From the NCBI GenBank assembly GCA_964348895.1, contig CAYGEH010000001.1:453586-517585 (forward strand): a stretch of 64,000 nucleotides of DNA, in the 5' to 3' direction. Shown one piece after another: positions 3,842 through 38,948 of the stretch. The stretch is from an uncultured Gammaproteobacteria bacterium. GTDB lineage: Bacteria; Patescibacteriota; Microgenomatia; 0-14-0-10-38-17. Under the pieces are notes generated by a model. It did not search any database, was not told the DNA's origin, and was given only the letters and a program-made list of their open reading frames with translations. The number at the start of each line of letters is the position of its first letter. The stretch's first letter is position 1. Both the position numbers and the translations under genes were made by a program.

Positions 3842-4763
3842 ATTTTTTAGTTTTTTGCTTTTCCTGGGAACGGTTTTAGCTTTGGTTTGGTTTTGGCCAG
3901 ACAAAAACTTTCGAATGGTTGTTTGTGATGTAGGCCAAGGAGATGCAATTTTATTCAACTATCGGAATTATCAAGTTTTAGTTGATGGTGGAGCCAACGA
4001 CAAGGTTTTAGGGTGTTTAAACAATAATATTCCCTTTTGGGACAGAGACCTGGAAATGGTCATTTTAACTCACCCAGACAAAGATCATTATGGCGGGTTA
4101 ATTTCTGTAGCAGAAAGATATAGATTATTGTATTTTGTTTGGAGTGGATTAATGCGGAAAGATTCAAATTTTGAAAAACTATTAGCTCAGGTTGGCAATC
4201 AAAGATCAAATATGATAAGGGTAGAGCAGGGCAATGAAATAGCGGTAGACAAGATAAAAATTAAATTCTATTGGCCAAATAAAGAATGGTTGTCTGAAAA
4301 ACTATCGGATAACAACCAAAAAGAGATTAGTCTGAACCAATCAGAGAGTGATAAAGAGTATCAAAAAGAATCAATTTTGGGGACAATTAACGAAGAAGGC
4401 CAATTGTCGATTAATGATTTTTCTTTAGTTTTTAACATTGCTTTTGACGAATTTGATGTTTTAATAACTGGGGACGCTGACAGCAGAATTCAACCAGAAA
4501 TTATGAAAACCACTGACCTTGTCGACGCTGAAATTTTGAAGGTAGCTCATCATGGTTCTAGGCATGCCTTTAATGATCAGTTTCTTGATTCATTTGAGTC
4601 GGCCTTGGCAATAATTTCGGTTGGGGGCAATAACCCCTGGGGACATCCAAGCCCAGATCTACTCCGCAAACTTGATCGTTTTGGTTTAGCTGTGCTAAGA
4701 ACAGACACGGAGGGAGAAATAAAGCTAATTAGCGACGGAAGAGAGTGGTGGAGAGAAAAATAG
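3834..4763 (+). CDS. comEC: ComEC C-terminal metallo-beta-lactamase-fold domain (separate ORF with its own N-terminal TM helix)
   Basis: One TM helix, then MBL motifs ('VVCDVGQGDAILF', 'HPDKDHYGG', 'HHGS'). The ATG at 3834 overlaps the upstream stop by 8 nt, and its frame is closed by a stop at 3816. Confidence 0.75.
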   Translation: MSRFFSFLLFLGTVLALVWFWPDKNFRMVVCDVGQGDAILFNYRNYQVLVDGGANDKVLGCLNNNIPFWDRDLEMVILTHPDKDHYGGLISVAERYRLLYFVWSGLMRKDSNFEKLLAQVGNQRSNMIRVEQGNEIAVDKIKIKFYWPNKEWLSEKLSDNNQKEISLNQSESDKEYQKESILGTINEEGQLSINDFSLVFNIAFDEFDVLITGDADSRIQPEIMKTTDLVDAEILKVAHHGSRHAFNDQFLDSFESALAIISVGGNNPWGHPSPDLLRKLDRFGLAVLRTDTEGEIKLISDGREWWREK

Positions 4764-4902
4764 CGTAAAACAAAGACTGATTGTCTCTTTTGTTTGTTTG
4801 TGTAAAATAAGGCCAAGGACTAAAGCAACAAAAAATCAGTAAAATCATGTCTGGCTTTTTTGACTTTTAGGTTTTGAAAGTTAGAGTATAATTCTTTTAA
4901 CT

Positions 4903-6639
4903 ATGGTAATAGAAGCGATTCTCGAAAAGGCCATTTTGGCCAGTCTAGAAGAACTGGGGTTGTCGGAGGTAAATTTTGATTTGGAATTAAACAACGACAA
5001 ACAGAATCGAGGGGATTATGCCACCAATGTAGCTATGTCAGCTTTTTCAACAAAGAGTAATCAAATAAAAGCTAAAACCCCCTTAGGCTTGGCTCAAGCA
5101 TTGGTGAAAAATTTAAACAAAGAGCTTCTGAACAGGGGCATGGTTGATCGAATAGTGGCAGTTTCTCCAGGATTTATTAACTTTTACCTAGAGGAAGCGT
5201 TCTTGAAAAAATTTCTAATTGAGGTTATTGAAAAAGGTGACGATTTTGGACGGCAAACGATTGGAGAGGGTAAAACGGTGGTTATTGATTACTCCGCACC
5301 TAACATTGCTAAGCCATTTGGAATTGGCCATCTAAGATCAACCATTATTGGTCAAGCTCTTTATAACATTTTTTCTTTTCTTGGTTATCGGGTCATTGGC
5401 GACAATCATTTGGGGGACTGGGGAACCCAGTTTGGAGTATTGCTATATCAGATTGAAAAAGAAAACCTCAATTCCCAGGAATTAACAATTAAAAAGCTAG
5501 AGAGTCTTTACGTCAGGTTTCATCAGAAACTGGAAGAAAATCAAGAAGAACAAAGCAGGGCTAGAGAACACTTTAGGCGATTGGAGTTAGGGGAATCAAG
5601 GTCAAAAAAAATCTGGCAACAGCTGGTTAGCCTGTCTTTGGTTGAATATGAGAAGGTTTATCGTCTTTTGGGAGTAAAAATTGATTTTACTCTAGGAGAG
5701 AGCTTTTACCAAGACAAGGTGTCGGCGGTTTTGGCCGATGCCAAAAAGAAGAAAATAGCGGTTAAAAGCGAAGGTGCACTAATAATACCTCTAAACAACA
5801 ATTCTGTGCCAGCAATGCTGGTGAAATCTGACGGCGCTACTACATATTTACTGAGAGATCTGGCTACCATAAAATACAGAATTGAGCGTTGGAATCCGGA
5901 ATTGATTATTTATGAGGTTGGTGTTGATCAAGGGTTTCATTTTTCTCAAGTTTTTGAGGCGGCAGAGAAGCTTGGTTATATCAATAAAAATAAATTAATT
6001 CATGTGGCCCACGGCATGATTCGAGGAAGTTTTGGTAAACTTTCAACTAGAAGGGGAGGGGGAATATATTTAGATGAGGTTTTGGCCGAGGCAATTGATC
6101 GAGCTCGAAAAATTGCAACTTGGGCTGGCGTTACCAAGAATCTTTCTGAGAGAGAACAAAAAAGAGTAGCCAGGGCTGTTGGTGTTGGAGCAATAAAATA
6201 TAACGATCTTAAACAAAACCCTAGAACAGAAATTGTTTTTGATTGGAAAAAAGTATTAAGCCTAGAAGGAGATTCTGGTCCATATTTACAATATACTTAT
6301 GCTCGAACAAGAAGAATTATAGAAGAAGCAAAAAAGAACAAGCTTAATTTAAAAAAAACACCTAAATACAGGCTAAAAGATGAAGAGCTATCAGTAGTTA
6401 GGCTAATTTGCTATTTTTGCAAAACAATTGAGAATTCGGCCATAAAATTTTCTCCAAACTTAATTGCGACACTTCTTTATCAATTAGCTCAAAAATATAA
6501 CGCCTTCTATGATAAACATCGAGTTTTAACTAAAGACAAAGAAGCCAAAAGATTTCGCCTATTGCTTACAAAAGCAGCCGCTCAAACCATGAAAAATGGA
6601 CTAAGTCTGCTTGGAATTGAGACACTTGAGAGAATGTAG
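4903..6639 (+). CDS. argS: Arginyl-tRNA synthetase
   Basis: Class I aaRS with HIGH-like 'PNIAKPFGIGHLRSTIIG', an 'MSTRRG' element and a C-terminal DALR anticodon-binding domain. 578 aa. Confidence 0.9.
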   Translation: MVIEAILEKAILASLEELGLSEVNFDLELNNDKQNRGDYATNVAMSAFSTKSNQIKAKTPLGLAQALVKNLNKELLNRGMVDRIVAVSPGFINFYLEEAFLKKFLIEVIEKGDDFGRQTIGEGKTVVIDYSAPNIAKPFGIGHLRSTIIGQALYNIFSFLGYRVIGDNHLGDWGTQFGVLLYQIEKENLNSQELTIKKLESLYVRFHQKLEENQEEQSRAREHFRRLELGESRSKKIWQQLVSLSLVEYEKVYRLLGVKIDFTLGESFYQDKVSAVLADAKKKKIAVKSEGALIIPLNNNSVPAMLVKSDGATTYLLRDLATIKYRIERWNPELIIYEVGVDQGFHFSQVFEAAEKLGYINKNKLIHVAHGMIRGSFGKLSTRRGGGIYLDEVLAEAIDRARKIATWAGVTKNLSEREQKRVARAVGVGAIKYNDLKQNPRTEIVFDWKKVLSLEGDSGPYLQYTYARTRRIIEEAKKNKLNLKKTPKYRLKDEELSVVRLICYFCKTIENSAIKFSPNLIATLLYQLAQKYNAFYDKHRVLTKDKEAKRFRLLLTKAAAQTMKNGLSLLGIETLERM

Positions 6640-23770: not shown

Positions 23771-23844
23771 TGGTGGACCCGAGGGGAATTGAACCCCTAC
23801 TTTCGCTATGCCATAGCGATGTTCTACCATTAGACTACGGGCCC
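23771..23844 (-). tRNA. tRNA-Ala (anticodon GGC), CCA encoded
   Basis: Acceptor GGGCCCG/CGGGUCC with the G3:U70 alanine identity pair; anticodon stem UCGCU/AGCGA with loop AUGGCAU; T-arm AGGGG-UUCAAUU-CCCCU; 3' ACCA encoded. Confidence 0.85.
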
Positions 23845-23936
23845 CTAACAAGCTCTATTTTATTAGAGGAAGGTGTTTTTGGCAAGAAAGTAGGCTTTTG
23901 TGCTAAAATTAGCCCTGTTAGTTAGGCCTAAATTGG

Positions 23937-24010
23937 GCCACCTTAGCTCAGTTGGTTAGAGCAACTGTTTTGTAAACAGTAGGTCCTCGGTTCAAATCCG
24001 AGAGGTGGCT
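23937..24010 (+). tRNA. tRNA-Thr (anticodon UGU)
   Basis: Acceptor GCCACCU/AGGUGGC; D-arm GCUC-AGUUGGUUA-GAGC; anticodon stem ACUGU/ACAGU with loop UUUGUAA; T-arm CUCGG-UUCAAAU-CCGAG. Confidence 0.85.
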
Positions 24011-24023
24011 CTTGAACTCTTTT

Positions 24024-24095
24024 GCCGATGTGGCTCAGTGGCAGAGCACGTCTTTGGTAAAGACGGGGTCATGGGTTCGATTCCCATCATCGGCT
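24024..24095 (+). tRNA. tRNA-Thr (anticodon GGU)
   Basis: Acceptor GCCGAUG/CAUCGGC; anticodon stem CGUCU/AGACG with loop UUGGUAA; T-arm AUGGG-UUCGAUU-CCCAU. Confidence 0.85.
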
Positions 24096-24327
24096 CTAGT
24101 TATTTAAATGTAACAGCAGAGGAAAGATTATTTAAAAAAATTAAGAAATTTAAAACAGATTAGCCTTATTTATTTTTATTTTCTTTGTCTGCTGATTGAA
24201 AGTTGGTTTGTTTTTAGGAAAATTGTAAGATTAACATCTTTTGAGTACTCTAATTACTCTTTAAAATTAGCCGACACTTCGGTTATAAACCTCAATTTTC
24301 TTCTTTTAGAAGCGAATTTTATTTGTT

Positions 24328-24574: not shown

Positions 24575-27394
24575 ATGCTCTGCCCAAAAAACTTCAACAA
24601 TGTAGTTTTAAAAATAAAAAAGCTATTGTCTGGGAACAGGAGCATTTTATTGAAAATAAAACCACAAACAAAGAAAAGAAAAAGAAGCTGTCTAGAGAAC
24701 AAGGGAAGCCTTAAAAAGATATCCTTGATTTTTTCGATTAAGACCTTTAAAAAGAAAAGTTTTACTAGAAAAAAAGTTGATTGCTTTTTTTTACGTGCCC
24801 ACGAGGTCTTTGATCTACTTGGGCGACATTTTGTTATTAAACATAAAACACTAAGACATTCCTCTTGTAATCGCAGAAACAACACTGTTTATAGAAACTT
24901 AAAAAAAAGAAACAACTGGCTGTTTAGTCTTAAAGAAAAAACCCTAAAGGGTTTAAAAATATTTTTGTTGACAACAAAGAATGTTTTTAAAAAATTATTT
25001 CACCTCGCTGTCAACAAGAGTAAGTCTTTATACTATTATATAAAAGAGGGGCGCTTTCGAGAAATTACTCCAGCTTTTGTAGCACACTCGGTACGACGAC
25101 ACTTGCCACTTTTTTTAGCTGTCTTGTTTATTACGCCTGCGGCGATTTTTTTGGGAATTTTTATTTATTCTAGATTAAACCAGCCACCTGCTTATGCGAC
25201 CCCTTTTACTGGTGCAATCAAGATTTCTCGGCAGTCTACTACTCTGTCTACCGACGGTGACTGGCTTACTTCGTTGGCACATTCAGGAGATGGGGTGACT
25301 GGTGACGCCGAGTCAGGAACCTTTAATCCAATTCATCCAGGTGGAACCTCAGATGGCACAGCAGGATCGGGCTTGGCGATTGGCTATATGACGGCTGGGG
25401 CGACAACCTATGCCACTACTGAGTTTATTGGTTTTAGGCCTAGTGCCAACGGAAACTTGACTGGCATAATGCTAGTTTTAGAGAACACCCTGTCTGCTTC
25501 TCGATCGGATGTGGACATAGTGGTTGAATTATTACGTTTTCCTTCAGCCGTTTGCACCACTACTTGCTCTAACTATGTGACTGGCTCTTTAAACTCTTTT
25601 ACCTTTCCAGCAGATACAGAGGTTTTAAGAAGAACTGTCTGGCAGTTTAATCAAGGTTTGTCGGGGGAAAACATGGCACCAGGAAACTTTGGTAGAGCAA
25701 CTTTTGATTTCCGTTTTGATTCGCCGGTAGCAGTAAACACTAGTAGTCATTATGGAATTAGGATTATTAACATGGGGTCAGGAGCACCAGTGTTTGGTGC
25801 GTGGGCAGCCAATGCCCCTTTTGCCAATTTTCCTATAATTAATGGTGCTTTTCGTACAATTGGGGTAAAAAGTATTGACAACGTCAATGCACCAACAGTT
25901 AACATGCCATTGGCTTTGTCTGGTAATAGCGTGATTATTTTAGGAACTTCACCTACACAAAGCTCTGGTATGGTAGCCGGAAATTCACTTGCTGGCGTGG
26001 GCTTGCCGACAATTAGAAGAACGGAGAACGAACATTGGACAGCAACCTATTCTTTAACCAATAACAACTGGACAATTGGGGGTTCAGTTTCTGGAGTTCA
26101 AAACAGAAGATTAACTACAGCGACGACTGGTGGTACAGGGCCGTCTTGGGTTAATGATGGAGTGGCAATAACACCACTGGCTGTTGACTCGGCCGCCTCT
26201 AATCGACTCTGTGTTACTTCAAGCGCTGGTTTTGCTGTTAATCAAACCATTGATCTTTGGGATTCGGACACAGCCACGCTGGGATACACTATTGCCTCAG
26301 TTAATGCTTCAGATGGTAGTTGTCCAGGAAATGGGCCATCAATTATTACCACCGCTGCGACCGTTGTTGGTTACACTGTTAATAAAAATGCCACTGTGGC
26401 CCAGGCGGTTTGGAAACAAAGAATTATCCAGGGGGCGGAAACAGCCTTTTCTCAAAACATGCCAACAACTAGCAAAATCTGTGTAGTTGACGCCTCGCAG
26501 TTTTCTGTTCGGCAGGGGGCAGCAGCTAATTTAGCTATTTGGGACAATAATTCGGTTATTTTGGCAACCAACGCCATTACTGCCATTACCGTTGATGATA
26601 TAGCCTGTGTTAATCCAACTCACGATGGCTTAACCTTAGCCTCTACGATTACCGCCGGAACCTATACAATTGACCAAAACGCTAGAGTAGCAGAAATTTC
26701 TACAACGCTTTCTAATATCGGAACGCCAGCTAATAATGCAACTATGCGCTGGACAACCTTTAATCATACCCAAAACCCAACCGCTTCTCCTCATCTTGCC
26801 AGAACCAGCTCGGTGATGATTGGTTTAGCAAAAAACTTGGCACCGGCCCAATCGGGCGTCAATTACCCCTTTCTTTCTAACAATCATATATTTTTTACAG
26901 CCTACGGCGACGCCAATACCCTGGCTCCAGCCGACGGCGACATTGTTGTTGTGGGAAATGGCAGGCCCGATCCAGACAGTGCTGATTCTCCGAATTTAAT
27001 AGATGATTTAAATTGGTCAGGGAAACAGGAACATGTGATTACTATTGATCGACATTGGAGTGCACCCCTGGTTTATACTGGTTCGTATGGCAGTGCAGTT
27101 TTAGATGGTGCCGGCGCTAGGGCTGATTTTTCCGCTTATTCGCAAAACGCAGGCTGGATTTCGGCGGTGATTGCTCCGAGTTCGCAGTTGCTTTTTGGCA
27201 ATGCCCTAACACTCATTATCGGATTACCATTCCCGGAAAAATTGTTATTGACTCTGATGCCTCTTTGGCTTTTGGGAAACAAGGAGCGGCTATTCCCGAC
27301 TCTTCATTTCAAAACATTTATTTTGACAACGTCAGCCCGGCGGTTTCCACCACGCTTACTACCAACTCTGACACTGGTACGGTGCTTACCGTAA
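24575..27394 (+). CDS. Giant surface protein, N-terminal ORF (frame A). The real reading leaves this frame at ~27.21 kb; sequence after that is out-of-frame read-through
   Basis: Only one in-frame ATG (24575), followed by a ~170-aa K/R-rich stretch over AT-rich DNA, so the true start is uncertain. A TM anchor 'LPLFLAVLFITPAAIFLGIFIY' lies at about 25.10-25.17 kb. T/S/G/A/N-rich ectodomain with repeated 'IWDNNSV...GYTIDQNA' modules that recur in the next ORF. Confidence 0.6.
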   Translation: MLCPKNFNNVVLKIKKLLSGNRSILLKIKPQTKKRKRSCLENKGSLKKISLIFSIKTFKKKSFTRKKVDCFFLRAHEVFDLLGRHFVIKHKTLRHSSCNRRNNTVYRNLKKRNNWLFSLKEKTLKGLKIFLLTTKNVFKKLFHLAVNKSKSLYYYIKEGRFREITPAFVAHSVRRHLPLFLAVLFITPAAIFLGIFIYSRLNQPPAYATPFTGAIKISRQSTTLSTDGDWLTSLAHSGDGVTGDAESGTFNPIHPGGTSDGTAGSGLAIGYMTAGATTYATTEFIGFRPSANGNLTGIMLVLENTLSASRSDVDIVVELLRFPSAVCTTTCSNYVTGSLNSFTFPADTEVLRRTVWQFNQGLSGENMAPGNFGRATFDFRFDSPVAVNTSSHYGIRIINMGSGAPVFGAWAANAPFANFPIINGAFRTIGVKSIDNVNAPTVNMPLALSGNSVIILGTSPTQSSGMVAGNSLAGVGLPTIRRTENEHWTATYSLTNNNWTIGGSVSGVQNRRLTTATTGGTGPSWVNDGVAITPLAVDSAASNRLCVTSSAGFAVNQTIDLWDSDTATLGYTIASVNASDGSCPGNGPSIITTAATVVGYTVNKNATVAQAVWKQRIIQGAETAFSQNMPTTSKICVVDASQFSVRQGAAANLAIWDNNSVILATNAITAITVDDIACVNPTHDGLTLASTITAGTYTIDQNARVAEISTTLSNIGTPANNATMRWTTFNHTQNPTASPHLARTSSVMIGLAKNLAPAQSGVNYPFLSNNHIFFTAYGDANTLAPADGDIVVVGNGRPDPDSADSPNLIDDLNWSGKQEHVITIDRHWSAPLVYTGSYGSAVLDGAGARADFSAYSQNAGWISAVIAPSSQLLFGNALTLIIGLPFPEKLLLTLMPLWLLGNKERLFPTLHFKTFILTTSARRFPPRLLPTLTLVRCLP
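27127..27394 (+). other. -1 frameshift junction between the two ORFs of the giant gene
   Basis: Frame B (codons at position 1 mod 3) opens after a TGA at 27124-27126. Frame A (2 mod 3) runs to a TAA at 27392-27394. Protein-like composition switches from A ('...APSSQLLFGNALT') to B ('HYRITIPGKIVIDSDASLAFGKQGAAIPDSS...') near 27205-27215. Local landmarks are a T5 run at 27192-27196 and, in frame A, the heptamer G_GGA_AAC at 27274-27280, whose -1 slip enters frame B. Confidence 0.6.
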
Positions 27395-30300
27395 CTTCCA
27401 CCTCTGGTTTTAATGTCGGCGATACCATTGTTATTCGCGATAACAACTCGGTAGCGATAACTAGATTGGTTGCTGCGATTGAAAATGCTACCCAGATTAG
27501 GGTAACAGCCGCGTTGGTTGCTGGCTATACGATAGATCAGAGTGCTTTTGTTGCCAAGGGCCCAACCACAGAATTACCTACTGGTGCTGATCGTCGAGCC
27601 GGAGTTTATACTATGACCGGCTTAATTGGAACAACACAAACCAACTTTCGGGTTGGTCGAGTAAGCTTGTATGGTCAGGGTTCAGATAGTTTTAGGACAA
27701 TGAAAAGTAATTTAGCAGTTGATGTTGAGGGTGATATTAATACTGGTTTCTTGGGAAACAATCTAACTGACTCTGGTAACACTTGGGTTGATGTTAAAGA
27801 CAATGTGGTGGGGAATTGGCAACCCCTAGATAGCATTGCTGTAGGTGGTGCCACTAATCAACTAGCGGACAACGAATTTTCTTCGATGAGAATGGGGGGA
27901 ACAGATGATGCTAACCAAATGCCAGTTTGGACTGGTCTTTTAACTGCTGGAGGCAGAAACGCCCTGCCAACCCCCAACATGGAGGTGGCAGAAATTGGAA
28001 CAATTCCCCTAACCGATATTTATAATAGTAATTTTAATGCTGGTTCGTCACTTTTTTCTTCTAATTACAACAATTCTAGTGTCTGGACGATTTTTGGCGA
28101 TGGTGCTAATAACGAAGTTAGCGATATGGTTTATTTTGGTGATCGGGGAAACAACATGTTTTATTCTTTAGAATTTAATCTTGGTATAACCATGGTGGCC
28201 AACGCTTCTTATGTTTGGGAATTTTGGAACGGAAGCGCTTGGCAAGGATTTACTCCTCGAGATGCTTATAGATATGAACCAAGAACGGACTACTGCATGC
28301 CACTTTCTGCTAATACAATTAGAAATTCTTTTACTCTGACTGTTCCCGAAGGTGGCACAAATTTTGGCTTAGATCAAATTGTGGCTATTAGCGACAATGA
28401 TTCGCCGAGAATTTTTCGAAGATTGGGAACTAGCGCTCCTTCTTCCACCACTTTGACTTTTTCTGAACCCCTGCCGGCTGGTTATGACACTGCTCAAGGT
28501 GCTCGAGTTTGTCGTTTAAGTGGCGGTCGCTGGATCGCCTTTGATCCAGCGAATATTTTTACAGCCAACACTGGTCGAAGAATTTTGAGTTGGACGCCAT
28601 CAAATTTGGGTAACGCGCCAGCTAGAACAACAGTTAATGGTGTGAACGCTTTTTGGGTAAGAGCGAGAATATCTACCCTTACTTCTTGGGAAGTCAATCC
28701 GGCTAATCAAACCACTCCAGTTAGCATGAGTGGATTAGAAAGAATTTCTTCTGGAGCTATTACGATGAGCTCTGGAGTACAAGAAGCTAAAATTACCGAA
28801 ATCACCCCTGGTTCGCTTTATAATCCCAACGAACAGTGGACCCTGGAATATGGCAATTCACCGGGATGGATAGAAACTATTCGTGGGGCTGCGGTTGGAC
28901 CACTTTCAGCCCCCTACCTTCATCGTGTTTCTGGAGGAGTTCTTAATTTTAGTCCTACCAACGTTCAAAACTGGTCAGTTCACAATAGCAATGTCCCTTT
29001 GGGCACAACAGACTATACAATGAGTGCTTTGGTTAGAATGGATATGCCAGCAGACGCCACTAGTCGTCGCTTAGGGCTTTTAATGCGTCAAAGCCTAGAC
29101 GGTGATGGCTATGCTGCTTTAATTACAAAAACTGCTTCTGTTAACACCGTTCAGTGGTGGACAACGTTAGCTGGTGTTCCCACCGCCATTGGTTCAGCAA
29201 CTTCTAAAACCTTTGATGTTGACACTTGGTATTGTTTAAAGGCAGAGGTTATCGGAACAACATTAAGAGCTAAATTTTGGGCAACAACGGATTGTGCTGT
29301 TGGAGAGCCAGGACCCTGGGATGTAACCGTTATCAATACTACTTATACTAATGGTCGAATTGGCCTTTATACTGGTTCGGCGACAGCCTCTCAGGGGGCA
29401 AGGGCAATGTTTGATCAGGTTTCTGTTATTGGCGGGGCTAATTTTTCTGATAACTTTAGTGATACTCAAACTTGGAGGGTAGAGGGTTCTATCCAGGGTT
29501 TAATTGGTGCAGCCACTCCGGGGACACCGTTTGCCAGCAATTTTATTAATTTTACTATAAAACATAGGGGCGGCTGGAATGGAGTGGTCAGCCCAGAAAT
29601 TGGCGATAAGATTTATTTAACTTCAACCGCTATTCGTAGTTATAGAGGACTAGATCCTTCGGTGCCGATTGTCACCAATAACAATAACACTAAATATGAG
29701 GTTTGGGATTTTGAATGGACTGGTTCGGCTTATGCGGTTACAGGGAGTGCTTCTGGCGCAGCAGGGACAGCTATCCCAGGCTTGACTTACACTGCTCCCA
29801 ACAATCAAATTTCTTTAAGAATAAACCCAGGAGCCCCCACGGCAACAAGGTTTGGCAACAGAATGCTTTTATTACAAGACAACCTTTTGCGCAGCAATGG
29901 CTCTTGGACTGGAGTAAATGGGATAGGAAGTGCGGCCTTGTTTTACCCTAGTTATACTTTAACAGGCAGTCCGGTTGCTACCCGCTACAACATTGAGGGA
30001 CAGAGTGGTACAGCCAATGCTCGACAACGAGGCACGATTGATTTTTGGTTTAAAACTAACTACGAGGGTAGCCCTTCTTCTGTAACTAATTCAGAAGGAA
30101 TGTATTTAATTGATTATGCTAATCAGGGTAACACTGACCGCCTGTTTGTTAGACACACCTCCGAAGGCTTTTTAGAAGCATCAATTTGGGCAGGTGCCAC
30201 TCAGGGACCGATTTTACGACAAAGCTTTTCTGCTGAGGCTGGTCGCTGGTATCATTTTCGCTTAGTGTGGTCCGAAGACGCCACTCCAACAATCCACAGA

Positions 30301-33300
30301 AGAGCTTGGCTTGATGGAACACCCTTTTCTATAAACCAAGGAAGCTCTCTTGCGGCGCGTGGTATTAATGCAGGGTTAATAAGAATAGGCAATAACTGGA
30401 CTTATAATGCGGCTTTTGATGGCGCCATTGACGAATTGGCTATTTTTGATGAAGATCTTGACACTTCTGGCGCTTGTAACTGGGGATCGTTTACTGTTCC
30501 TGCTTCGCCCTGGCTTGGGGCTGAAACCATTGGCTGTGCTGCCGACAGAAGCGGAATTAATATTTTTCGGGCTAGTTTTGATTCTGCCATGAACCCGCAG
30601 GAAGGGTTTATTTGGGCCGACTATGCATATGGGAACCCAGCTGTGATTTTTACCAATGGTGCAGATACAGGAAACGAGAGATTTAGAATAATTACTTATC
30701 CCGAAAGAACCCGTGTTTGGATAGATAATACTGGTGAAAAGTATACGCCTTCAGCCAGAATTAAATATGGTTCTGGTCATCTTGAAAACAATGCCCTGAC
30801 AACATTAGCTGGCTGGTCTCATAATTTTACTTTCCACCACAAGGCGGCCCGTGATTCAGAAACTAATCCGACTCATTCGCCAGTTTTAAATTTGAGGCGT
30901 AGTATTCATATTTGGTCTGAGGAAAACTTTACTTATACTGGGGCTACGACTGGTGCGCCGATCAATTCTGGTTTAGGTTTTGGTTTAACCGCAGTCGGTC
31001 TTTCTGGTTTGGCCAACATGAACATTAGCCATTTGTCGATGGAGAATCAGTTTAGTAATTTTTCCATTATGACGAACCCCTTTACTTCGATCAGACCATT
31101 TCCCAGCCAAGTTATATCTAAATCAGTTTTTTACAATTACTTTGATCGGGCTTACACGGTTTCTGCCAAAACCCAGGGTTCTAATTATGTTGGTGCCTAT
31201 TTTGTGACGACTAACTTTGCTGCAGCCAACATTGGTACAGGTTATAATGCTTCCGCCTCGCAAAACGTTGGCATTGATGGGAGTATTTTTATGGGTCACC
31301 GAAACAGTTTTGTCACTGTGCCCCCAGCAGCGGCAAATGGTGCGGCAGCGTTTTTCTCTGGCCGTCTTTACACTATTCGTAATAGCGAATTTCATAATAA
31401 TGGTATTTCTGGTTCAGGCACCACAGGGGCACTGAACTTCAGTGCTGGTGTAGCGAAATTGACCATTGAAAATAACATTTTTTCTATCAATACCAATGGA
31501 GTTCGGCTTTATGGTAATTCTTTTGTTGATCTTGCCAATAATGTCTTTGACGGTCATGTTTCTGACGATGTAATCACTGTTGCTGGTGGATATGGTTCTG
31601 GTATCCGTTCCGCCCAATCTTTCTCCTCGGTGTTTGTTAGAGACACTGGGAGTGTTTTGGGTCGAGGATTATGGAATGAGGCTGATATTAATTTACCTCC
31701 TAATACCGCCACTTTTGAGGCAGAATCAATGTTGCAGTTTATTGGTGAGGGCACATCTTTGTTTAGTCCGATTTTGTTTGGAACAGTGGATTATTTGAAT
31801 ATGGGACGAGTGCCAGAAGAATATTTTCACACGACAATTCCAGGAACAGAGATTCGGCTTGGTTCTGGCAAAGATATTGTTAATTTGACGACTTTCGGCA
31901 ACATGCGCACCACTGGCGGAGGCTTATCGGACACAACTGTTCGCACAAGTGGTGGTTATGCTTGGCGACTAGACCCTCGAAGTTCTGATGTTGCCCTAGA
32001 TTATACCGCTAAAGTAGTAGGCGTAGCTGGAAAGCCCCTGGCTGTTACTGGCTATTTACGAATTAACGAGGACTATGGATCTTCTGGTTTACCAACAGTA
32101 ACGCTTTCTGGATTGGGAATGGCAGGGCCAAATTTGACTTGGACGGCCCAAGCTTCTTCTAATGTTTGGCAGCAATTTGTGGTTTCTGGTACGCCAACAG
32201 AATCAGCCCTAGCCGAAGTGAAAATAAGCGTTAGTCTCGAGGGTGTGGTGGTGGCCGATTCTGGTACAAGTCAAATTATTGCTAATCCGATAGGTAATTA
32301 TTTGCCAGCCTTAGTTGAAGATGTTAATAAATCTTGGAGACCAAACCAGTGGGTTGGATTTTTAATGAGAGACAGCAACGGTAAGATTTTTGAAATTGTT
32401 AGAAACACCGGTCAGCTTTTGTATGTGAAGGGGATTGTAGCACCACACCTTTTAAGTACTACTTTTACTGCGGCAACTCCGGGAGACTATATTATTTTTC
32501 GTCAACCAATGGTTTATTTAGACGATGTTTCAGTTTTGTCTGGAACGGTTGACACAGGCACCCTAGACTTACATATTGCTGGTCAACCGGTTTCACCTTG
32601 GCTTGCGACTGGTCTGACTGCCGAATCAGTTTGGAGTGCTCAATATGGTGTTTTTGCTGATATTACTGGCTCTTTTGGTCAACTTATGCAAGATGCCCTG
32701 GTTGCTCGGTATGCCAATGTGCTTGATCCCTCGCCAACCACAATTTCTTTTAACACCAACTTAACGGCCTCTGCTGATGATTTTTATAATGAAGGAGTAA
32801 TTATATTCACTGAAGGTCAAAACAGGGGAGTGGTAAGGCGCATTTCTGCTTACGGTGGTGCCAGTAAAACCATTACCATTGCTCCGCCTCTTCCTTTTGC
32901 TCCGAAAAATGGGGACAGATTTGCCGTTTTGGCCGCAACTAGCTTTTCGGCCGGTGGTACTGGTGGGGCCAGTGCGGCGGAAATTTGGAACTATGCTGTT
33001 AGATCTCTAACGGACGCCACCCTAAACTCTGGCAGTTTAGCAACGAGTTTTGACATAGCAGCGATTCAATCTAGTCTAACTACAATTTTGTCCCAAACCA
33101 ATAACATTGTGGCAATAAAAACAAAAACAGACACGATTAATTGGGCCGACATAATCGGACTTATAACTACCACAGGTCAAATTAGGGCCAAGACCGACAC
33201 AATAAATTGGAGCGACATTTCCGCTGTTAAAACCAGAACTGACACAATAAACTGGAACGATGTTACTGGTATCAAATTAAACACAGACACAATTGTTTGG

Positions 33301-36300
33301 GGAGATATTACAGCAATCAGAAATAATGTTGCCACTCTAATTAGCGAAATAGGTGTTGGCAATATTGCAGCAATCAGAACCAAAGCCGAGACCATTTCTT
33401 GGGGAGATATTACTGGGCTAGTAACGACATCAGGGCAAATTAAAGAGAAAACTGACACCATTAATTGGGCAAATGTGGTAGCAATAAAAACAAAAACAGA
33501 CACGATCGCTTGGGATGATGTTACTGGTATTAAGGTTAAGACAGACACGATCGCTTGGGGCGATATTGGTGTTTTACAATCTTCAATAAATTCTTTAAAT
33601 AATATTTCTGCCACTGACATTTGGGCTTATGCGACAAGAACCATAACTGGCGAAGTGGTGCTAACCGCGGATTCAAGACGAGCTATTTGGGACACAGCCT
33701 GTGCCATTCTGAATACCTCTGGTAGTGTTGGAAAACAAGTTTGTGACAATCTTGACACAACTATTTCTTCTCGCTCAACTTTAACCGCGGCCCAAGTTTG
33801 GGCTGAGGCAACCAGAACTATCACTGCCCTAGAAAGCCCAGCCCTAGCTGCAATTGCTAACAATGTTTGGAGTAACGCCACAAGAGCTCTGACTTATTAT
33901 GGCAACGATATAACAGCCCAGCAGGTTTGGAGTGTTTTGACTTCTTCTTTAACAACGATTGACTCTATTGGTAAGCTTTTGGTAACCAATGTTGACGAGA
34001 CGATCTCTTCTCGTTCCAGCCAGGAAAGCTTGGATGTTTTATCAGAAAATGTTGCAACCACCTCTGCTTTAATTGATGCTCCAATATCTTCTCGAGCCGC
34101 TCAGTCGAGCTTGGACGACCATGAAGCGGCAGAGTCAGCTTTTAGAACTCAAACGACCAATACCTTAGGATCAATGACCATTAATATTGCCGCTATCTTG
34201 ACCCAGCTTTCAAATATTGAAACTAAAATTAATACAATTCAATCAACTTTAGCCGTTATGGACGGCAAGTTAAACATTATTGACGCCAATGTAACTAGCG
34301 TCAAAACAACGATTGAAGACACTAATATTAAGGTTACGGCGATGCAAACGGTAACCAACAATATTTTAGCTAAGTGGGGAAGCTATAACGCAACAACGAT
34401 TCTTGGCTATGTTGATGCTTTAGAGGCCAACTTGGGGGATCCCAATGACCCAACGTCTTCGGCCACGGTTTTTGGCAAACTTAATTATCTTAAACAAAGT
34501 GGTGCTGGTGGCGGCGCTGGTGGCGGTGGCGGCGGCATGATCGATTTAGTTTATGCTCAAGCCCAGTCAACCCACACTAAACTTTTAGAGGTTCAAACAG
34601 AGCTTGGATTCAATGGTAAATCCACAAACGCCTATGATGAAATGATTGCTGTTAAGGGTTATGTTAATGAGATTGAACTATCCTTGTCGACACTAGATTT
34701 AAATACTTCCGCAATTACCGCTTCTGTTACTAATGTTTCTAACGACCTAAGAGCTGTTACTAATAAAATTGGCAAGGTTAATGTTGACTCTCTCGCCCCT
34801 CTTTTTGAGGTGCAAAGAATGGACATTGACTATTTGAAAACTAAAATGGTTGAACTAAAAACAGTTGCGGACATTAATCGTCAGCTTTTGGAAAAAACAG
34901 TTAATCAGCCGATTGTTAAGGTGATTATGGAATGGGGGTCGGTAATTATTAAGTTTGTCATCGTTAACCCTTCGGACTCAGTTACCCAAACAATTCCGTT
35001 TAAGGCCTTTTTACCCAAAGAAGTCAGACAAGAGTACATTATAGACCTTGGTGGGTTGATGCTCAACTATGATGCGACAACAGAACAGTATTATGTAACA
35101 GCAGAAATTACTCTAGAAAAGGGCGAATCAGTTATTAGAAGTGTGAAAATTAAAGACATTTGGGTTATTTCTGAAGATGAAATTGCCTCTTTGCGTCAAC
35201 AGGCGGAAGATCTATATGAAGGATTAAAAAAGACCCCCTATAGCGCTCAGGCCTTGATTTTAAGAACTGATATTAACACCAGATTGGACAGAGTCGTTAG
35301 AAAACAGAAAGATGGCAGATCTACTCCACAGGAGCATATTTTGGCTTATCGAGAAAACGCTGAAGATATGAAAGCAATTAATGAAAACATTAAGGGTCTT
35401 AAGGATTTGGTTTTAACCTCTGGGGTTGGGAGTAACTTTTTGGCCTCAATTGGTGGTATTCAAACATTTGCGACATGGGGTATTGTTTTAGTTTTAATTT
35501 TTGGTATGGGAACTTTAGGAATGTTTTATTATCAATTGTGGCGAAGAAAGGTAGTTACTGTGAGTAGCGAAACTAGAAAAAAAACAAAAAAAATAGAAAT
35601 ATCAACACCATCGCCATTTATGCTTCCTGGATTTGACTTAGCTTGGTTGAAAAAAATTCTTTTCGGTTGGTTAATTTTAATAAGAGATATTTTTGCCAAT
35701 TTGATTCGACTGATCAAGCTCTTTAATTTTCAAACAAAATCAACGACCACCAAAGCAAAAATAACACAGAAAACACTAATTGTTTTTTTAATGATGGGGG
35801 GAACTGTGGTTGCAATTATCAGCGGAATAGTGGTAACGCGAAACTTTTTGAAAAAAAATCAAGACCAGAACACAGAGACAAGGGTGACGACTTCGATGCC
35901 TAATTCAACCTTAGTTGCCACCAGAGAGGAAAGAGTCGAAGTCCTAGTTGCGGAAATGATCGAAAGGGCAACTGAAAAAAAAGAAACCCACGAAAGGATT
36001 GAGGAGCTGACAAAAGAGTCAGAAGAGGAAGGAGTTTTGAGGGCTACTTTTGAATATCAACAATTACTGGTAATTAAGCAAACACCGAACGGTTGGGTTG
36101 ATGTTCGACAAGAACCCTCTTTGTCAGCAGAAATAATTACCAAGGTTTATCCTGGGGAAAGTTATCCTTTCTCTGAAACAGAAGGAGAATGGTATAAGAT
36201 ACTACTCAAAGACTTGACTGAGGGATGGATTCCGGCCAAGTTTGTAAAACCGGAAGAGAAAATAACAAATGCTGTTGGCGATATCTTTGTGGAAATTATT

Positions 36301-36486
36301 CCTCCGGAAGGAGGCGGAGTTAATATTCGCCAGTCGGCTGATAAGGAAAGCAAAATTATTAAGACTGTTTATGTCAAGAACAAATATCTCAAGCTGGGAG
36401 AAGAGGGTGATTGGATAAAAATTGAGCTATTAGGTGGAAAGGCAGGCTTTGTTTTTAAAGAATTTATTCAAACGATAAGCGAATAA
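27265..36486 (+). CDS. Giant surface protein, main ORF (frame B, 3,073 aa from an in-frame TTG; the frame is open from 27127). Contains lectin-like jelly-roll domains, a parallel beta-helix, tandem repeats, coiled-coil-like sequence, poly-Gly, TM helices and two SH3b domains
   Basis: DUF1080/ConA-like region at about 28.9-29.4 kb ('YTMSALVRMD...GYAALI...DTWYCLKAEVIGTTLRAKFW...GRIGLYTG'). LamG-like region at about 29.97-30.45 kb ('GTIDFWFKT...RWYHFRLVW...FDGAIDELAIFDEDL'). Parallel beta-helix at about 31.37-31.68 kb ('LTIENNIFSINTNGVRLYGNSFVDLANNVFDG'). A 15-aa repeat array at 33.11-33.58 kb, poly-Gly at 34498-34536, TM helices at ~35.45 kb and ~35.8 kb, and two SH3b-like domains at 36.08-36.47 kb. 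Confidence 0.7.
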   Translation: MAFGKQGAAIPDSSFQNIYFDNVSPAVSTTLTTNSDTGTVLTVTSTSGFNVGDTIVIRDNNSVAITRLVAAIENATQIRVTAALVAGYTIDQSAFVAKGPTTELPTGADRRAGVYTMTGLIGTTQTNFRVGRVSLYGQGSDSFRTMKSNLAVDVEGDINTGFLGNNLTDSGNTWVDVKDNVVGNWQPLDSIAVGGATNQLADNEFSSMRMGGTDDANQMPVWTGLLTAGGRNALPTPNMEVAEIGTIPLTDIYNSNFNAGSSLFSSNYNNSSVWTIFGDGANNEVSDMVYFGDRGNNMFYSLEFNLGITMVANASYVWEFWNGSAWQGFTPRDAYRYEPRTDYCMPLSANTIRNSFTLTVPEGGTNFGLDQIVAISDNDSPRIFRRLGTSAPSSTTLTFSEPLPAGYDTAQGARVCRLSGGRWIAFDPANIFTANTGRRILSWTPSNLGNAPARTTVNGVNAFWVRARISTLTSWEVNPANQTTPVSMSGLERISSGAITMSSGVQEAKITEITPGSLYNPNEQWTLEYGNSPGWIETIRGAAVGPLSAPYLHRVSGGVLNFSPTNVQNWSVHNSNVPLGTTDYTMSALVRMDMPADATSRRLGLLMRQSLDGDGYAALITKTASVNTVQWWTTLAGVPTAIGSATSKTFDVDTWYCLKAEVIGTTLRAKFWATTDCAVGEPGPWDVTVINTTYTNGRIGLYTGSATASQGARAMFDQVSVIGGANFSDNFSDTQTWRVEGSIQGLIGAATPGTPFASNFINFTIKHRGGWNGVVSPEIGDKIYLTSTAIRSYRGLDPSVPIVTNNNNTKYEVWDFEWTGSAYAVTGSASGAAGTAIPGLTYTAPNNQISLRINPGAPTATRFGNRMLLLQDNLLRSNGSWTGVNGIGSAALFYPSYTLTGSPVATRYNIEGQSGTANARQRGTIDFWFKTNYEGSPSSVTNSEGMYLIDYANQGNTDRLFVRHTSEGFLEASIWAGATQGPILRQSFSAEAGRWYHFRLVWSEDATPTIHRRAWLDGTPFSINQGSSLAARGINAGLIRIGNNWTYNAAFDGAIDELAIFDEDLDTSGACNWGSFTVPASPWLGAETIGCAADRSGINIFRASFDSAMNPQEGFIWADYAYGNPAVIFTNGADTGNERFRIITYPERTRVWIDNTGEKYTPSARIKYGSGHLENNALTTLAGWSHNFTFHHKAARDSETNPTHSPVLNLRRSIHIWSEENFTYTGATTGAPINSGLGFGLTAVGLSGLANMNISHLSMENQFSNFSIMTNPFTSIRPFPSQVISKSVFYNYFDRAYTVSAKTQGSNYVGAYFVTTNFAAANIGTGYNASASQNVGIDGSIFMGHRNSFVTVPPAAANGAAAFFSGRLYTIRNSEFHNNGISGSGTTGALNFSAGVAKLTIENNIFSINTNGVRLYGNSFVDLANNVFDGHVSDDVITVAGGYGSGIRSAQSFSSVFVRDTGSVLGRGLWNEADINLPPNTATFEAESMLQFIGEGTSLFSPILFGTVDYLNMGRVPEEYFHTTIPGTEIRLGSGKDIVNLTTFGNMRTTGGGLSDTTVRTSGGYAWRLDPRSSDVALDYTAKVVGVAGKPLAVTGYLRINEDYGSSGLPTVTLSGLGMAGPNLTWTAQASSNVWQQFVVSGTPTESALAEVKISVSLEGVVVADSGTSQIIANPIGNYLPALVEDVNKSWRPNQWVGFLMRDSNGKIFEIVRNTGQLLYVKGIVAPHLLSTTFTAATPGDYIIFRQPMVYLDDVSVLSGTVDTGTLDLHIAGQPVSPWLATGLTAESVWSAQYGVFADITGSFGQLMQDALVARYANVLDPSPTTISFNTNLTASADDFYNEGVIIFTEGQNRGVVRRISAYGGASKTITIAPPLPFAPKNGDRFAVLAATSFSAGGTGGASAAEIWNYAVRSLTDATLNSGSLATSFDIAAIQSSLTTILSQTNNIVAIKTKTDTINWADIIGLITTTGQIRAKTDTINWSDISAVKTRTDTINWNDVTGIKLNTDTIVWGDITAIRNNVATLISEIGVGNIAAIRTKAETISWGDITGLVTTSGQIKEKTDTINWANVVAIKTKTDTIAWDDVTGIKVKTDTIAWGDIGVLQSSINSLNNISATDIWAYATRTITGEVVLTADSRRAIWDTACAILNTSGSVGKQVCDNLDTTISSRSTLTAAQVWAEATRTITALESPALAAIANNVWSNATRALTYYGNDITAQQVWSVLTSSLTTIDSIGKLLVTNVDETISSRSSQESLDVLSENVATTSALIDAPISSRAAQSSLDDHEAAESAFRTQTTNTLGSMTINIAAILTQLSNIETKINTIQSTLAVMDGKLNIIDANVTSVKTTIEDTNIKVTAMQTVTNNILAKWGSYNATTILGYVDALEANLGDPNDPTSSATVFGKLNYLKQSGAGGGAGGGGGGMIDLVYAQAQSTHTKLLEVQTELGFNGKSTNAYDEMIAVKGYVNEIELSLSTLDLNTSAITASVTNVSNDLRAVTNKIGKVNVDSLAPLFEVQRMDIDYLKTKMVELKTVADINRQLLEKTVNQPIVKVIMEWGSVIIKFVIVNPSDSVTQTIPFKAFLPKEVRQEYIIDLGGLMLNYDATTEQYYVTAEITLEKGESVIRSVKIKDIWVISEDEIASLRQQAEDLYEGLKKTPYSAQALILRTDINTRLDRVVRKQKDGRSTPQEHILAYRENAEDMKAINENIKGLKDLVLTSGVGSNFLASIGGIQTFATWGIVLVLIFGMGTLGMFYYQLWRRKVVTVSSETRKKTKKIEISTPSPFMLPGFDLAWLKKILFGWLILIRDIFANLIRLIKLFNFQTKSTTTKAKITQKTLIVFLMMGGTVVAIISGIVVTRNFLKKNQDQNTETRVTTSMPNSTLVATREERVEVLVAEMIERATEKKETHERIEELTKESEEEGVLRATFEYQQLLVIKQTPNGWVDVRQEPSLSAEIITKVYPGESYPFSETEGEWYKILLKDLTEGWIPAKFVKPEEKITNAVGDIFVEIIPPEGGGVNIRQSADKESKIIKTVYVKNKYLKLGEEGDWIKIELLGGKAGFVFKEFIQTISE
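33112..33580 (+). repeat. In-frame tandem repeat array (about 9 copies of a ~45-nt / 15-aa unit 'KTDTINWxDVTGIKx', with occasional longer spacers)
   Basis: 'gcaataaaaacaaaaacagacacgat' recurs at 33112 and 33481, and 'acagacacgatcgcttgggg' at 33497 and 33541. Protein: KTDTINWADI.../KTDTINWSDISAVKT/RTDTINWNDVTGIKL/NTDTIVWGDITAIR.../KTDTINWANVVAIKT/KTDTIAWDDVTGIKV/KTDTIAWGDIGVL. Confidence 0.8.
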
Positions 36487-37415: not shown

Positions 37416-37487
37416 AGGGCTGTCGGTTAATTGGTAAACCACGGGTCTCCAAAACCCGGACTGAGAGTTCGAGCCTCTCCAGCCCTG
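37416..37487 (+). tRNA. tRNA-Trp (anticodon CCA)
   Basis: Acceptor AGGGCUG/CAGCCCU; D-arm GGUU-AAUUGGUA-AACC; anticodon stem CGGGU/ACCCG with loop CUCCAAA; T-arm GAGAG-UUCGAGC-CUCUC; discriminator G. Confidence 0.85.
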
Positions 37488-37575
37488 CAAGCATCTTATT
37501 TATTTAGAGGAAAAATATTTTTATTAAGAAAGAAGAAAACTATTTTTTTGAAAATATTTACTTTGTTGAACCCTG

Positions 37576-38256
37576 TTACGGATTTTGTTGCTGATAAAGA
37601 GCCCAGTCTTGGCTGTTGACAATGCCATCTTTGTTTAGGTCAAACTCAGGATTAGAGGTACCAAATTTTTCCACGAAATCTCCAATGGTTTTCCTTGGTT
37701 TTTCTGATAAAACATTTTGAGGGGGGGGAGAGACAATTGGAGTTGGTGTAATTCTTAGCGGCTCTTCTTGCTCTTCCCGTTCTTCTTGAATCAAGTCTGG
37801 ACCTAGAGTTGTTTGCTGGGGGGGTTGTTGGTTTTGGGTAAGTGGTGTTGTTTGGCTTGTTTCAGCCAGGGATTTGGTTGTAAAAGAATAGGGAGCCCCA
37901 TTATTATCGTAGACTTGATCACCGACTCGAATTCTAAAGTAATAAATTGTTTCTGGAAGAAGAGGAGATAAGGTTAGGCTGTGATTGGTGGTTTGATTGT
38001 TTCCGGTGTTGCGTAGCAGAAAACTTCCAGGAGTAGTTCCATATTCAATTTGGCCAATAACCGGAGTAGTTGTTTGCCAGACAACGGTAACGGAATTGGC
38101 GGTAATATTGGTGGTTCTAACCCCTTGGGGTTGTTGTTGACCGGCAGCTTGACCAAACAAAGCTCTGACTCTATCTAGTCCTAAAACCAAACCAGCAATT
38201 AAGGCTAGGGCCAAGACTGAAGAAACAGCAACAATAACAATCTTTTTGTGTTTCAC
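37576..38256 (-). CDS. Membrane-anchored fibronectin-type-III-like domain protein with a Pro/Gln-rich linker and a C-terminal dockerin-like calcium-binding repeat
   Basis: N-terminal TM helix, FN3-like 'TNITANSVTVVWQTTTP...YYFRIRV', then a P/Q/T-rich linker. The C-terminal 'DLNKDGIVNSQDWALY' matches the dockerin loop consensus DxNxDGxVNxxD. GTG start. Confidence 0.5.
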   Translation of the reverse strand: MKHKKIVIVAVSSVLALALIAGLVLGLDRVRALFGQAAGQQQPQGVRTTNITANSVTVVWQTTTPVIGQIEYGTTPGSFLLRNTGNNQTTNHSLTLSPLLPETIYYFRIRVGDQVYDNNGAPYSFTTKSLAETSQTTPLTQNQQPPQQTTLGPDLIQEEREEQEEPLRITPTPIVSPPPQNVLSEKPRKTIGDFVEKFGTSNPEFDLNKDGIVNSQDWALYQQQNP

Positions 38257-38270
38257 ACCGAGAGGTTATT

Positions 38271-38948
38271 TTAATTAAACTTAAAAATGAAAGTTAACCC
38301 AAGAAACATTAAAATCATGCCTCCGCCGAATATCAAGGTGGTTGGTTCTAAGAAGCCAGTTTTGGGAAGATCCTCACCGGTTAAATTTGCTGCAGGAGTA
38401 GCTGCTTGTCCGCCAATAACATAAGAAGCGTTGATATTGCTAGGACAAACGATAATGTCAGTATTGTTGGTGGAGTTTATATTTGAGTCGTTAGTGCCAC
38501 CAGGCTGACAAAGAAAGCCTACTGAGGCCGTTCCTGGTGCCCTTCCCCTAAAGGTAATAGTTGCCAAGGTTCCTGTTCCTGTTTTGGGGCTACCAGTATC
38601 AGCTACACCATAAATTTCTATTTTTCCTGCGGTTGTTGTTATCGTGGTGATGGTAGGAAAAAATGTTCCCTCGGTGACGTTAACCACCTCTAATAAGGTT
38701 GAATTATATTGGACAATAGCGTCAACCCCATTTGTAGACTGACCGCCAGTGTTAACAGAAACAGTAACATTGAAAATGAAACCAGCATCAACCTCTCTAA
38801 CGGTAGGATTTAAGCTCAGGTGAGGAGAAGCTGTTTGGGCCAGAAGAGAAGAGAACGGAGCCAAGAGAAAAAACAAAACAAGTAACAAAGAGGTTACTAC
38901 ATTATATTGATGACCAATAGGAGGCTGTTTTTGTACCATTAAATTCAT
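38271..38948 (-). CDS. Secreted cohesin-domain protein with an LPXTG sortase cell-wall anchor
   Basis: Signal peptide, then a cohesin-like beta-sandwich pattern ('FIFNVTVSVNTGGQSTNGVDAIVQYNSTLLEVVNV...GKIEIYGV...TGTLATITFRG'). The C-terminal 'LPKTG' is followed by a hydrophobic segment and a basic tail. Confidence 0.55.
   Translation of the reverse strand: MNLMVQKQPPIGHQYNVVTSLLLVLFFLLAPFSSLLAQTASPHLSLNPTVREVDAGFIFNVTVSVNTGGQSTNGVDAIVQYNSTLLEVVNVTEGTFFPTITTITTTAGKIEIYGVADTGSPKTGTGTLATITFRGRAPGTASVGFLCQPGGTNDSNINSTNNTDIIVCPSNINASYVIGGQAATPAANLTGEDLPKTGFLEPTTLIFGGGMILMFLGLTFIFKFN

Follow-up and report, generated by a model that had tools for sequence, protein, structure and literature searches.

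A conserved tryptophan-repeat module in a giant, probably envelope-anchored protein of Patescibacteria

The choline-binding repeats, the CROPs of C. difficile toxins and the glucan-binding repeats (Pfam CW_binding_1) are degenerate short aromatic repeats of extracellular proteins that are regularly punctuated by a longer repeat and differ in number between proteins. The triple β-spiral shafts of adenovirus fibre, reovirus sigma-1 and phage PRD1 P5 are built on a pseudo-repeat of 15 residues that is occasionally longer, have Gly at a set position in the turn and adjoin a trimeric-type coiled coil, and are present in viral attachment or tail proteins. The stalks of giant bacterial adhesins, formed by immunoglobulin (Ig)-like or other rod-forming tandem domains or by trimeric autotransporter stalks, lie between distal head domains and the cell anchor; their repeat number varies among homologues, with block duplications and occasional 100%-identical copies, i.e. 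concerted evolution. Phase-variable loci with a variable number of tandem repeats (VNTRs), also called contingency loci, have in-frame repeats inside surface-protein genes. All of these features recur in the repeat described here. It lies in a 64,000-nucleotide (nt) stretch of DNA (the window; contig CAYGEH010000001.1, positions 453,586 to 517,585 of the forward strand), inside the gene of a giant protein, and the initial annotation, made from the letters alone, had described it as a 45-nt tandem array that expands and contracts by slipped-strand recombination. We consider it, with a probability of about 0.65, to be a conserved extracellular stalk module of a giant envelope-anchored protein from a Patescibacteria (Moranbacteria-like) cell.

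Translation of nucleotides 33100-33600 and a regular-expression scan placed an in-frame protein repeat at 33115-33573, inside an open reading frame (ORF) at 27382-36486 on the plus strand. This bears out the annotated position within a giant gene, and the annotated motif KTDTINWxDVTGI fits the consensus IK(T/A)KTDTIxWxD(V/I)T(G/A). The scan found eight copies of I-K-x-K-T-D-T-I-x-W-x-D-V/I-T-G/A rather than the nine or so reported earlier; the supposed ninth is likely a different motif, ISATDIWAYATRTIT. When the protein was shuffled 5000 times, the mean number of matches was 0.026 and the maximum 2, and since eight matches far exceed these counts the repeat is real. Counted in the frame that opens at 27265, as are all amino acid (aa) positions of the module, the motifs start at aa 1951, 1973, 1988, 2003, 2037, 2059, 2074 and 2089. 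Their start-to-start spacings are 22, 15, 15, 34, 22, 15 and 15 aa, or 66, 45, 45, 102, 66, 45 and 45 nt, so that only four of the seven intervals are 45 nt and the array is not uniform. Unit 1 of each half bears a 7-aa insert (LITTTGQ in half 1, LVTTSGQ in half 2), and the halves are set apart by the 19-aa segment IRNNVATLISEIGVGNIAA. Together, the spacings, inserts and separator give a true period of 86 aa (258 nt), which occurs twice.

Super-repeat 1 (33058-33315, plus strand; 86 aa, aa 1932-2017) consists of a diverged linker, AAIQSSLTTILSQTNNIVA, and four Trp units of 22+15+15+15 aa, and aligns to the orthologue consensus xxNVATLLSEIGTGNISA followed by four units. Its units are IKTKTDTINWADIIG (33115-33159), followed by the insert LITTTGQ (33160-33180), IRAKTDTINWSDISA (33181-33225), VKTRTDTINWNDVTG (33226-33270) and IKLNTDTIVWGDITA (33271-33315), after which comes the 19-aa linker (33316-33372). 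This linker, a predicted helix, opens super-repeat 2 (33316-33573, plus strand; 86 aa, aa 2018-2103), in which the same 22+15+15+15 aa arrangement is made up of IRTKAETISWGDITG (33373-33417) with the insert LVTTSGQ (33418-33438), IKEKTDTINWANVVA (33439-33483), IKTKTDTIAWDDVTG (33484-33528) and IKVKTDTIAWGDIGV (33529-33573). The helical-linker consensus of the super-repeats is NVATLISEIGTGNISA. Across 210 distinct 15-mers, the unit consensus with percentage conservation was I90 K87 T/A K82 T99 D99 T91 I95 x W100 x D73 V/I T65 A/G; W, T5, D6 and I8 are conserved at 95-100%.

At the DNA level, the copies are far less alike. Pairwise nt identity among the eight 45-nt units was 58-76% (mean 65%), and between the two super-repeats it was 59%, compared to 53% at the aa level. 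No exact repeat is longer than 26 nt, with copies that lie 369 nt apart; next comes one of 19 nt, whose copies are separated by 45 nt (33496 and 33541). Near-identical DNA cores, as annotated, are seen only for the string ACAGACACGAT, which is found in three of the eight units, and not elsewhere. Tandem Repeats Finder (TRF) called no array at 33115-33573, even at a minimum score of 30, and the Trp repeat does not consist of uniform, near-identical head-to-tail DNA units. The conserved residues are encoded by three or four different codons across the units. With a mean nt identity of 65% and synonymous codon differences at conserved residues, the copies in this genome are too diverged for slippage, and the same synonymous variety argues that they are old.

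The closest homologues are giant proteins of 2800-4428 aa from metagenome-assembled genomes of Candidatus Moranbacteria / Moraniibacteriota and other Patescibacteria (42-64% identity). The spacing [22,15,15,34,22,15,15] is identical in at least five orthologues (P0010, P0017, P0018, P0019 and P0029) at an overall identity of 51-60%, and P0026 and P0033 share it except for one degenerate unit. The insert and linker are conserved position by position among orthologues, and the identity of the module to that of the window is 66-79% compared to 42-64% for the whole protein. Across all orthologues, the number of motifs per protein is 0-20; other proteins have up to about 53. Some orthologues contain 12-20 motifs, either in one lengthened module or in two that lie about 190 aa from each other, and about thirteen lack the motif altogether, some of which are richer in other stalk motifs. 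Because the orthologues without the Trp repeat tend to carry more IWxYATRT(I/L)T and (L/I)DxxISSR motifs, the stalk looks like a mosaic of interchangeable motif modules.

We also examined 72 loci from metagenomes and species-representative genomes. The [34,22,15,15] block occurs in tandem once to about 13 times, and block variants of 71 and 78 aa and a 30-aa period are also present. One locus (L050, 2462-2965) has 2.0 copies of a 258-nt unit at 100% identity, and in another (L007, 2135-2365) a 111-nt unit (22+15 aa) is present 2.1 times at 98% identity; such copies speak for concerted evolution or a recent expansion within the family. More diverged 258-nt units were found in L042 (4.9 copies at 77%) and L010 (6.8 copies at 66%). 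The duplicating blocks are therefore 111 nt, 258 nt or whole modules (about 170-190 aa), not 45 nt. In the genome studied here, the 3034-aa protein encoded by the giant ORF is identical to the database protein P0009, which a look-up by exact sequence, covering assembled proteins rather than raw reads, found on 11 contigs. Its 90%-identity cluster has a single member, without a near-identical variant among 15 billion proteins, and neither the exact-sequence look-up nor this cluster revealed copy-number polymorphism among close strains. The variation in length proposed by the initial annotation is thus seen between relatives, but no present-day instability was seen.

The setting of the module within the giant protein is that of a stalk. 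The frame is open from 27265 to 36486, and P0009 begins at GTG 27382. The protein contains a LamG domain, a stalk of several fibrous motifs, a heptad coiled coil, two transmembrane (TM)-like segments and two SH3_3 domains. Pfam placed LamG at aa 920-1065 and the two SH3_3 domains at the C-terminus, and gave a sub-threshold match to Phage_BR0599; hydropathy placed the TM-like segments at aa 2735-2754 and 2836-2859 (27265 frame), just ahead of the SH3 domains. With LamG on one side of it and the TM+SH3 anchor on the other, the module is part of the stalk of a giant envelope-anchored protein, the surface-fibril kind of protein that had been proposed. It is flanked by four companion repeats of the IWxYATRT(I/L)T type starting at 32984, 33620, 33797 and 33866 (together 32984-33895, plus strand), and three (L/I)DxxISSR motifs follow further along the stalk (33763, 34003 and 34084, plus strand). 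Between the motif-rich stalk and the next region is an in-frame run of Gly codons, GAGGGAGGGGGG (34504-34536), in which TRF reported 6-, 9- and 12-nt repeats; this run may be a flexible hinge.

In orthologues, the giant gene extends further upstream. An ORF at 24575-27394 (plus strand, 939 aa) corresponds to the N-terminal part of the same giant gene and is 54% identical to the N-terminal ~800 residues of P0010, an orthologue of 3895 aa encoded in an unbroken frame. This upstream ORF has a basic N-terminus and a TM segment or signal anchor at aa 175-201, the only N-terminal one of the split gene. The reading frame changes at about nt 27200-27206, where frame 2 ends '...FGNA' and frame 1 resumes 'NTHYRITIPGKIV' as the orthologue does, and the change is consistent with a gain of two bases or a loss of one at GGCAATGCC|CT|AACACT. 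Programmed -1 frameshifting was considered and rejected in favour of a simple indel, since no slippery heptamer is present and the alignment to the orthologue picks up directly behind 'GNA', with two additional bases. This split was found on 11 contigs, and the three places shown come from three different samples; it is a real indel, not an assembly error.

To determine how widely the repeat occurs, we performed an exhaustive hidden Markov model search with a profile of 26 super-repeats (profile A2) against 1.84 billion cluster representatives. At E<=1e-3 there were 93 matching proteins, 29 of them at E<=1e-30, and each aligned to the profile over 1-11 stretches; word-indexed homologue searches recovered only 8 (module) and 7 (profile) fragments. 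With 93 clusters among 1.84 billion representatives, the family is rare. Profile scans with Pfam, NCBIfam and PHROG models gave no match to the module, Pfam had no match over aa 1930-2125 at E<=1, and no literature on the Trp motif or the giant protein was found. Among ten mid-sized members scanned, a type I dockerin is found at the C-terminus of six, MG2-like Ig domains in several and SH3_3 in one, and three members examined start with hydrophobic N-termini that, judged by eye, resemble signal peptides. Small proteins of 185-294 aa with 3-6 units also exist. The gene of one small repeat protein belongs to a densely packed group, some of whose other products repeat a 'GRYVYF' motif; the group appears phage-like by eye, although no family match supported this. 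In L001, the genes around P0006, a small repeat protein, matched no family when annotated.

The repeat is also present in a virus. The viral contig L078 (IMGVR_UViG_3300010342_000061) encodes at 4111-6456 a 781-aa tail protein with a Gly-rich repetitive middle, whose N-terminus matches the discoidin-like tail PHROG phrog_17517 (E 3e-29) and whose C-terminal shaft has four KTDTIxW units at spacings of 15, 22 and 15. The protein also has the companion motifs of the window protein (FWEALTSS..GSFGKLI and LDATISSR), and a holin and a virion structural protein adjoin it. The repeat thus occurs in a bona fide virion tail protein, at a single viral locus in IMG/VR. A tblastn search of 50,697 cultured-phage records gave no match for the module, the downstream flank or the small protein P0002.

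Structure prediction was informative only locally. AlphaFold2 (AF2) monomer models of 311 aa (14 sequences) and 86 aa (26 sequences) had mean predicted local distance difference test (pLDDT) scores of 46 and 60, respectively, and because of these low means were used for local secondary structure only. Both runs agree locally, with pLDDT of 65-84 in the best-modelled units, on a six-residue strand on (D)-V-T-G-I-K-T and a 3-10 turn on W-x-D with a period of 15 residues; a helix was predicted on the linker NVATLISEIG. The models thus point to a periodic, β-rich structure as likely. Structural periodicity had been anticipated from the repeat unit, and the strand plus turn every 15 residues agrees with it at the local confidence, although the models as a whole average far lower. 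Of the two folds suggested by the initial annotation, a small β-solenoid is possible on these models, and an RTX β-roll is excluded by sequence, as the GGxGxDxUx nonapeptide is absent and Pfam HemolysinCabind has no match at E<=1. Fold searches with both AF2 models gave no match, and segment and profile searches found no sequence relative of the module in the PDB. Weak PDB matches to sigma-1 (E 0.081) and GCN4 fusions fall in the downstream heptad coiled coil, outside the repeat. A match to the designed armadillo protein 4rzp was judged spurious, its summed E of 8e-7 being made up of stretches each with E>20. The linker plus unit 1 ('l.eiGtGNisaIKtktD') resembles the designed armadillo consensus ('LAeIAsGNasAIKqviD'; PDB 4rzp / 4hxt), which is probably coincidental.

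From the observed repeat anatomy, conservation, distribution, extracellular context and duplication blocks in relatives, we infer a fold and a function as a rod or spacer. Each unit would probably give one β-strand (D-V-T-G-I-K-T) and a tight turn around the invariant Trp, and the units would stack into an extended rigid rod that spaces the distal domains (LamG, β-helix-like) from the membrane/SH3 anchor. Its sequence would be kept by purifying selection on the protein and not by recent DNA duplication, and the length of the stalk would shift on an evolutionary time scale only, as composite blocks of 37 aa, 86 aa or a whole module are duplicated or lost. Differences in length between lineages may in this way be tuned by how many 86-aa blocks are present, the array being presumably fixed in this genome. 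Compared to the stalks of giant adhesins, the Trp-repeat family differs in lacking a Pfam, NCBIfam or PHROGs model, in that its unit is a composite 86-aa block of four mini-repeats and a linker, and in its Patescibacteria hosts and its TM+SH3 or dockerin anchors. Several points weigh against the extracellular stalk module. The spacer function is suggested by position and sequence conservation, and K, T, D and W seem more strongly conserved than a purely passive spacer would require; this pattern could point to binding of a ligand or metal, or to contacts between chains. In addition, because the frameshift splits the gene, the module-bearing ORF may lack an export signal and may be non-functional in this genome.

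Other explanations fit parts of the same evidence. In an active contingency locus, 45-nt units would slip in replication and copy number would vary between cells or strains, altering fibril length or antigenicity. The 19-nt exact repeat at 45-nt spacing, the 26-nt exact repeat, the recent tandem duplications in relatives and the motif counts that vary among orthologues speak for such a locus, but VNTR units are identical and uniform, and those of the window are diverged, irregularly spaced and invisible to TRF. The eight-unit layout is conserved across species at 51-60% overall identity, no polymorphism was seen around the protein found on 11 contigs, and relatives duplicate 111- and 258-nt blocks. 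An active contingency locus is therefore largely refuted and we regard it as very improbable; slipped-strand change of a 45-nt unit does not account for the variation in the family, and a role in antigenic variation found no support. The layout shared by at least five orthologues, the higher conservation of the module than of the whole protein and the absence of a variant in the 90% cluster instead argue for a selected structural module. An alternative is a monomeric β-hairpin solenoid like the choline-binding or CROP repeats, which would make the module an adhesin for a host cell surface and not a spacer. In those repeats, a long unit interrupts the short ones, and conserved aromatic residues make up the sites that bind carbohydrate or cell wall. 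The series of 15/22-aa short repeats interrupted by a long one of 34 aa, the invariant Trp with conserved Thr and Asp in each unit, the strand-turn-strand pattern of the monomer models and the secreted, usually monomeric family members with dockerin or MG2 domains are all compatible with this. However, the 15-residue unit is shorter than the roughly 20-residue units of the choline-binding and CROP families, whose repeats measure about 20/30 aa against 15/22/34 aa here. The consensus IKxKTDTIxWxDVTG is not theirs, CW_binding and related Pfam families had no match at E<=1, neither a sequence nor a fold in the PDB matched, and in the phage tail protein the module is found alongside typical fibre motifs. 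We therefore think a ligand-binding solenoid unlikely.

The viral tail protein brings in a further possibility, a piece of tail-fibre shaft with a triple-stranded β-structure and a 15-residue pseudo-repeat as in the triple β-spiral of adenovirus and reovirus, acquired by the giant bacterial protein and folding only as a homotrimer. The adenovirus shaft consensus likewise has a 15-residue period, in which the units have hydrophobic residues at positions 8, 10, 13 and 1 and Gly at 15. The tail protein of the viral contig, beside a holin and a virion protein, has all three motif families, the giant protein has weak Phage_BR0599 and tail-assembly matches upstream of the module and a heptad coiled coil with weak sigma-1 and GCN4-fusion matches downstream, and poor confidence of monomer models is typical of obligate oligomeric fibres. 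Against this, segment and profile searches of the PDB found no sequence similarity to any solved fibre, no fold similarity to adenovirus fibre, sigma-1 or P5 was detected, and the invariant Trp and charged K and D fall outside the triple β-spiral consensus. Cultured-phage records had no match, IMG/VR had one locus, and most carriers are cellular proteins anchored by dockerin or SH3. An acquired trimeric fibre segment thus seems doubtful to us. A broader idea, which we put forward tentatively and would not bet on, is that the 86-residue four-Trp block is an undescribed fibrous fold found both in the tail fibres of phages and in surface proteins of epibiotic, ultrasmall bacteria. Patescibacteria might then build host-contact appendages from shaft modules of the phage-fibre type, or their phages might borrow them, and the number of blocks might set the reach.

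The giant gene lies in a chromosomal neighbourhood with genes for MreB, MreC, PBP2, DprA and TopA downstream, a Wzy_C protein upstream, and tRNAs. GC content is 43-46% in the giant gene (window 26000-34000) compared to 36-39% in the surrounding chromosome. On the upstream side of the gene are tRNA-Ala/Thr/Thr (23771-24096) and a 59-aa HTH_17 ORF, and on the downstream side is tRNA-Trp (37416-37488). The gene may be an island gained by horizontal transfer. Just downstream, at 37576-38948 on the minus strand, are two small proteins, one with an fn3 / purple-acid-phosphatase-N domain and the other, encoded 1.8 kb downstream of the giant gene, with a cohesin domain (E 2.8e-8). Since many Trp super-repeat proteins elsewhere end in a dockerin and a cohesin protein is encoded nearby here, a cohesin-dockerin surface assembly may be involved.

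Collectively, these results turn a supposed hypermutable array into a defined, conserved module with clear boundaries, which could seed a new domain-family model. Its general kind, the degenerate stalk repeats of a surface protein with block duplications, is familiar, and the specific family appears to be undescribed; as a structural repeat of a familiar general kind, its significance is moderate. In Patescibacteria, whose host-attachment machinery is poorly understood, the Trp module marks the extracellular stalks of surface proteins whose anchor is TM+SH3 or a dockerin, and its link to a phage tail protein hints at an exchange of fibre modules between Patescibacteria cells and their viruses.

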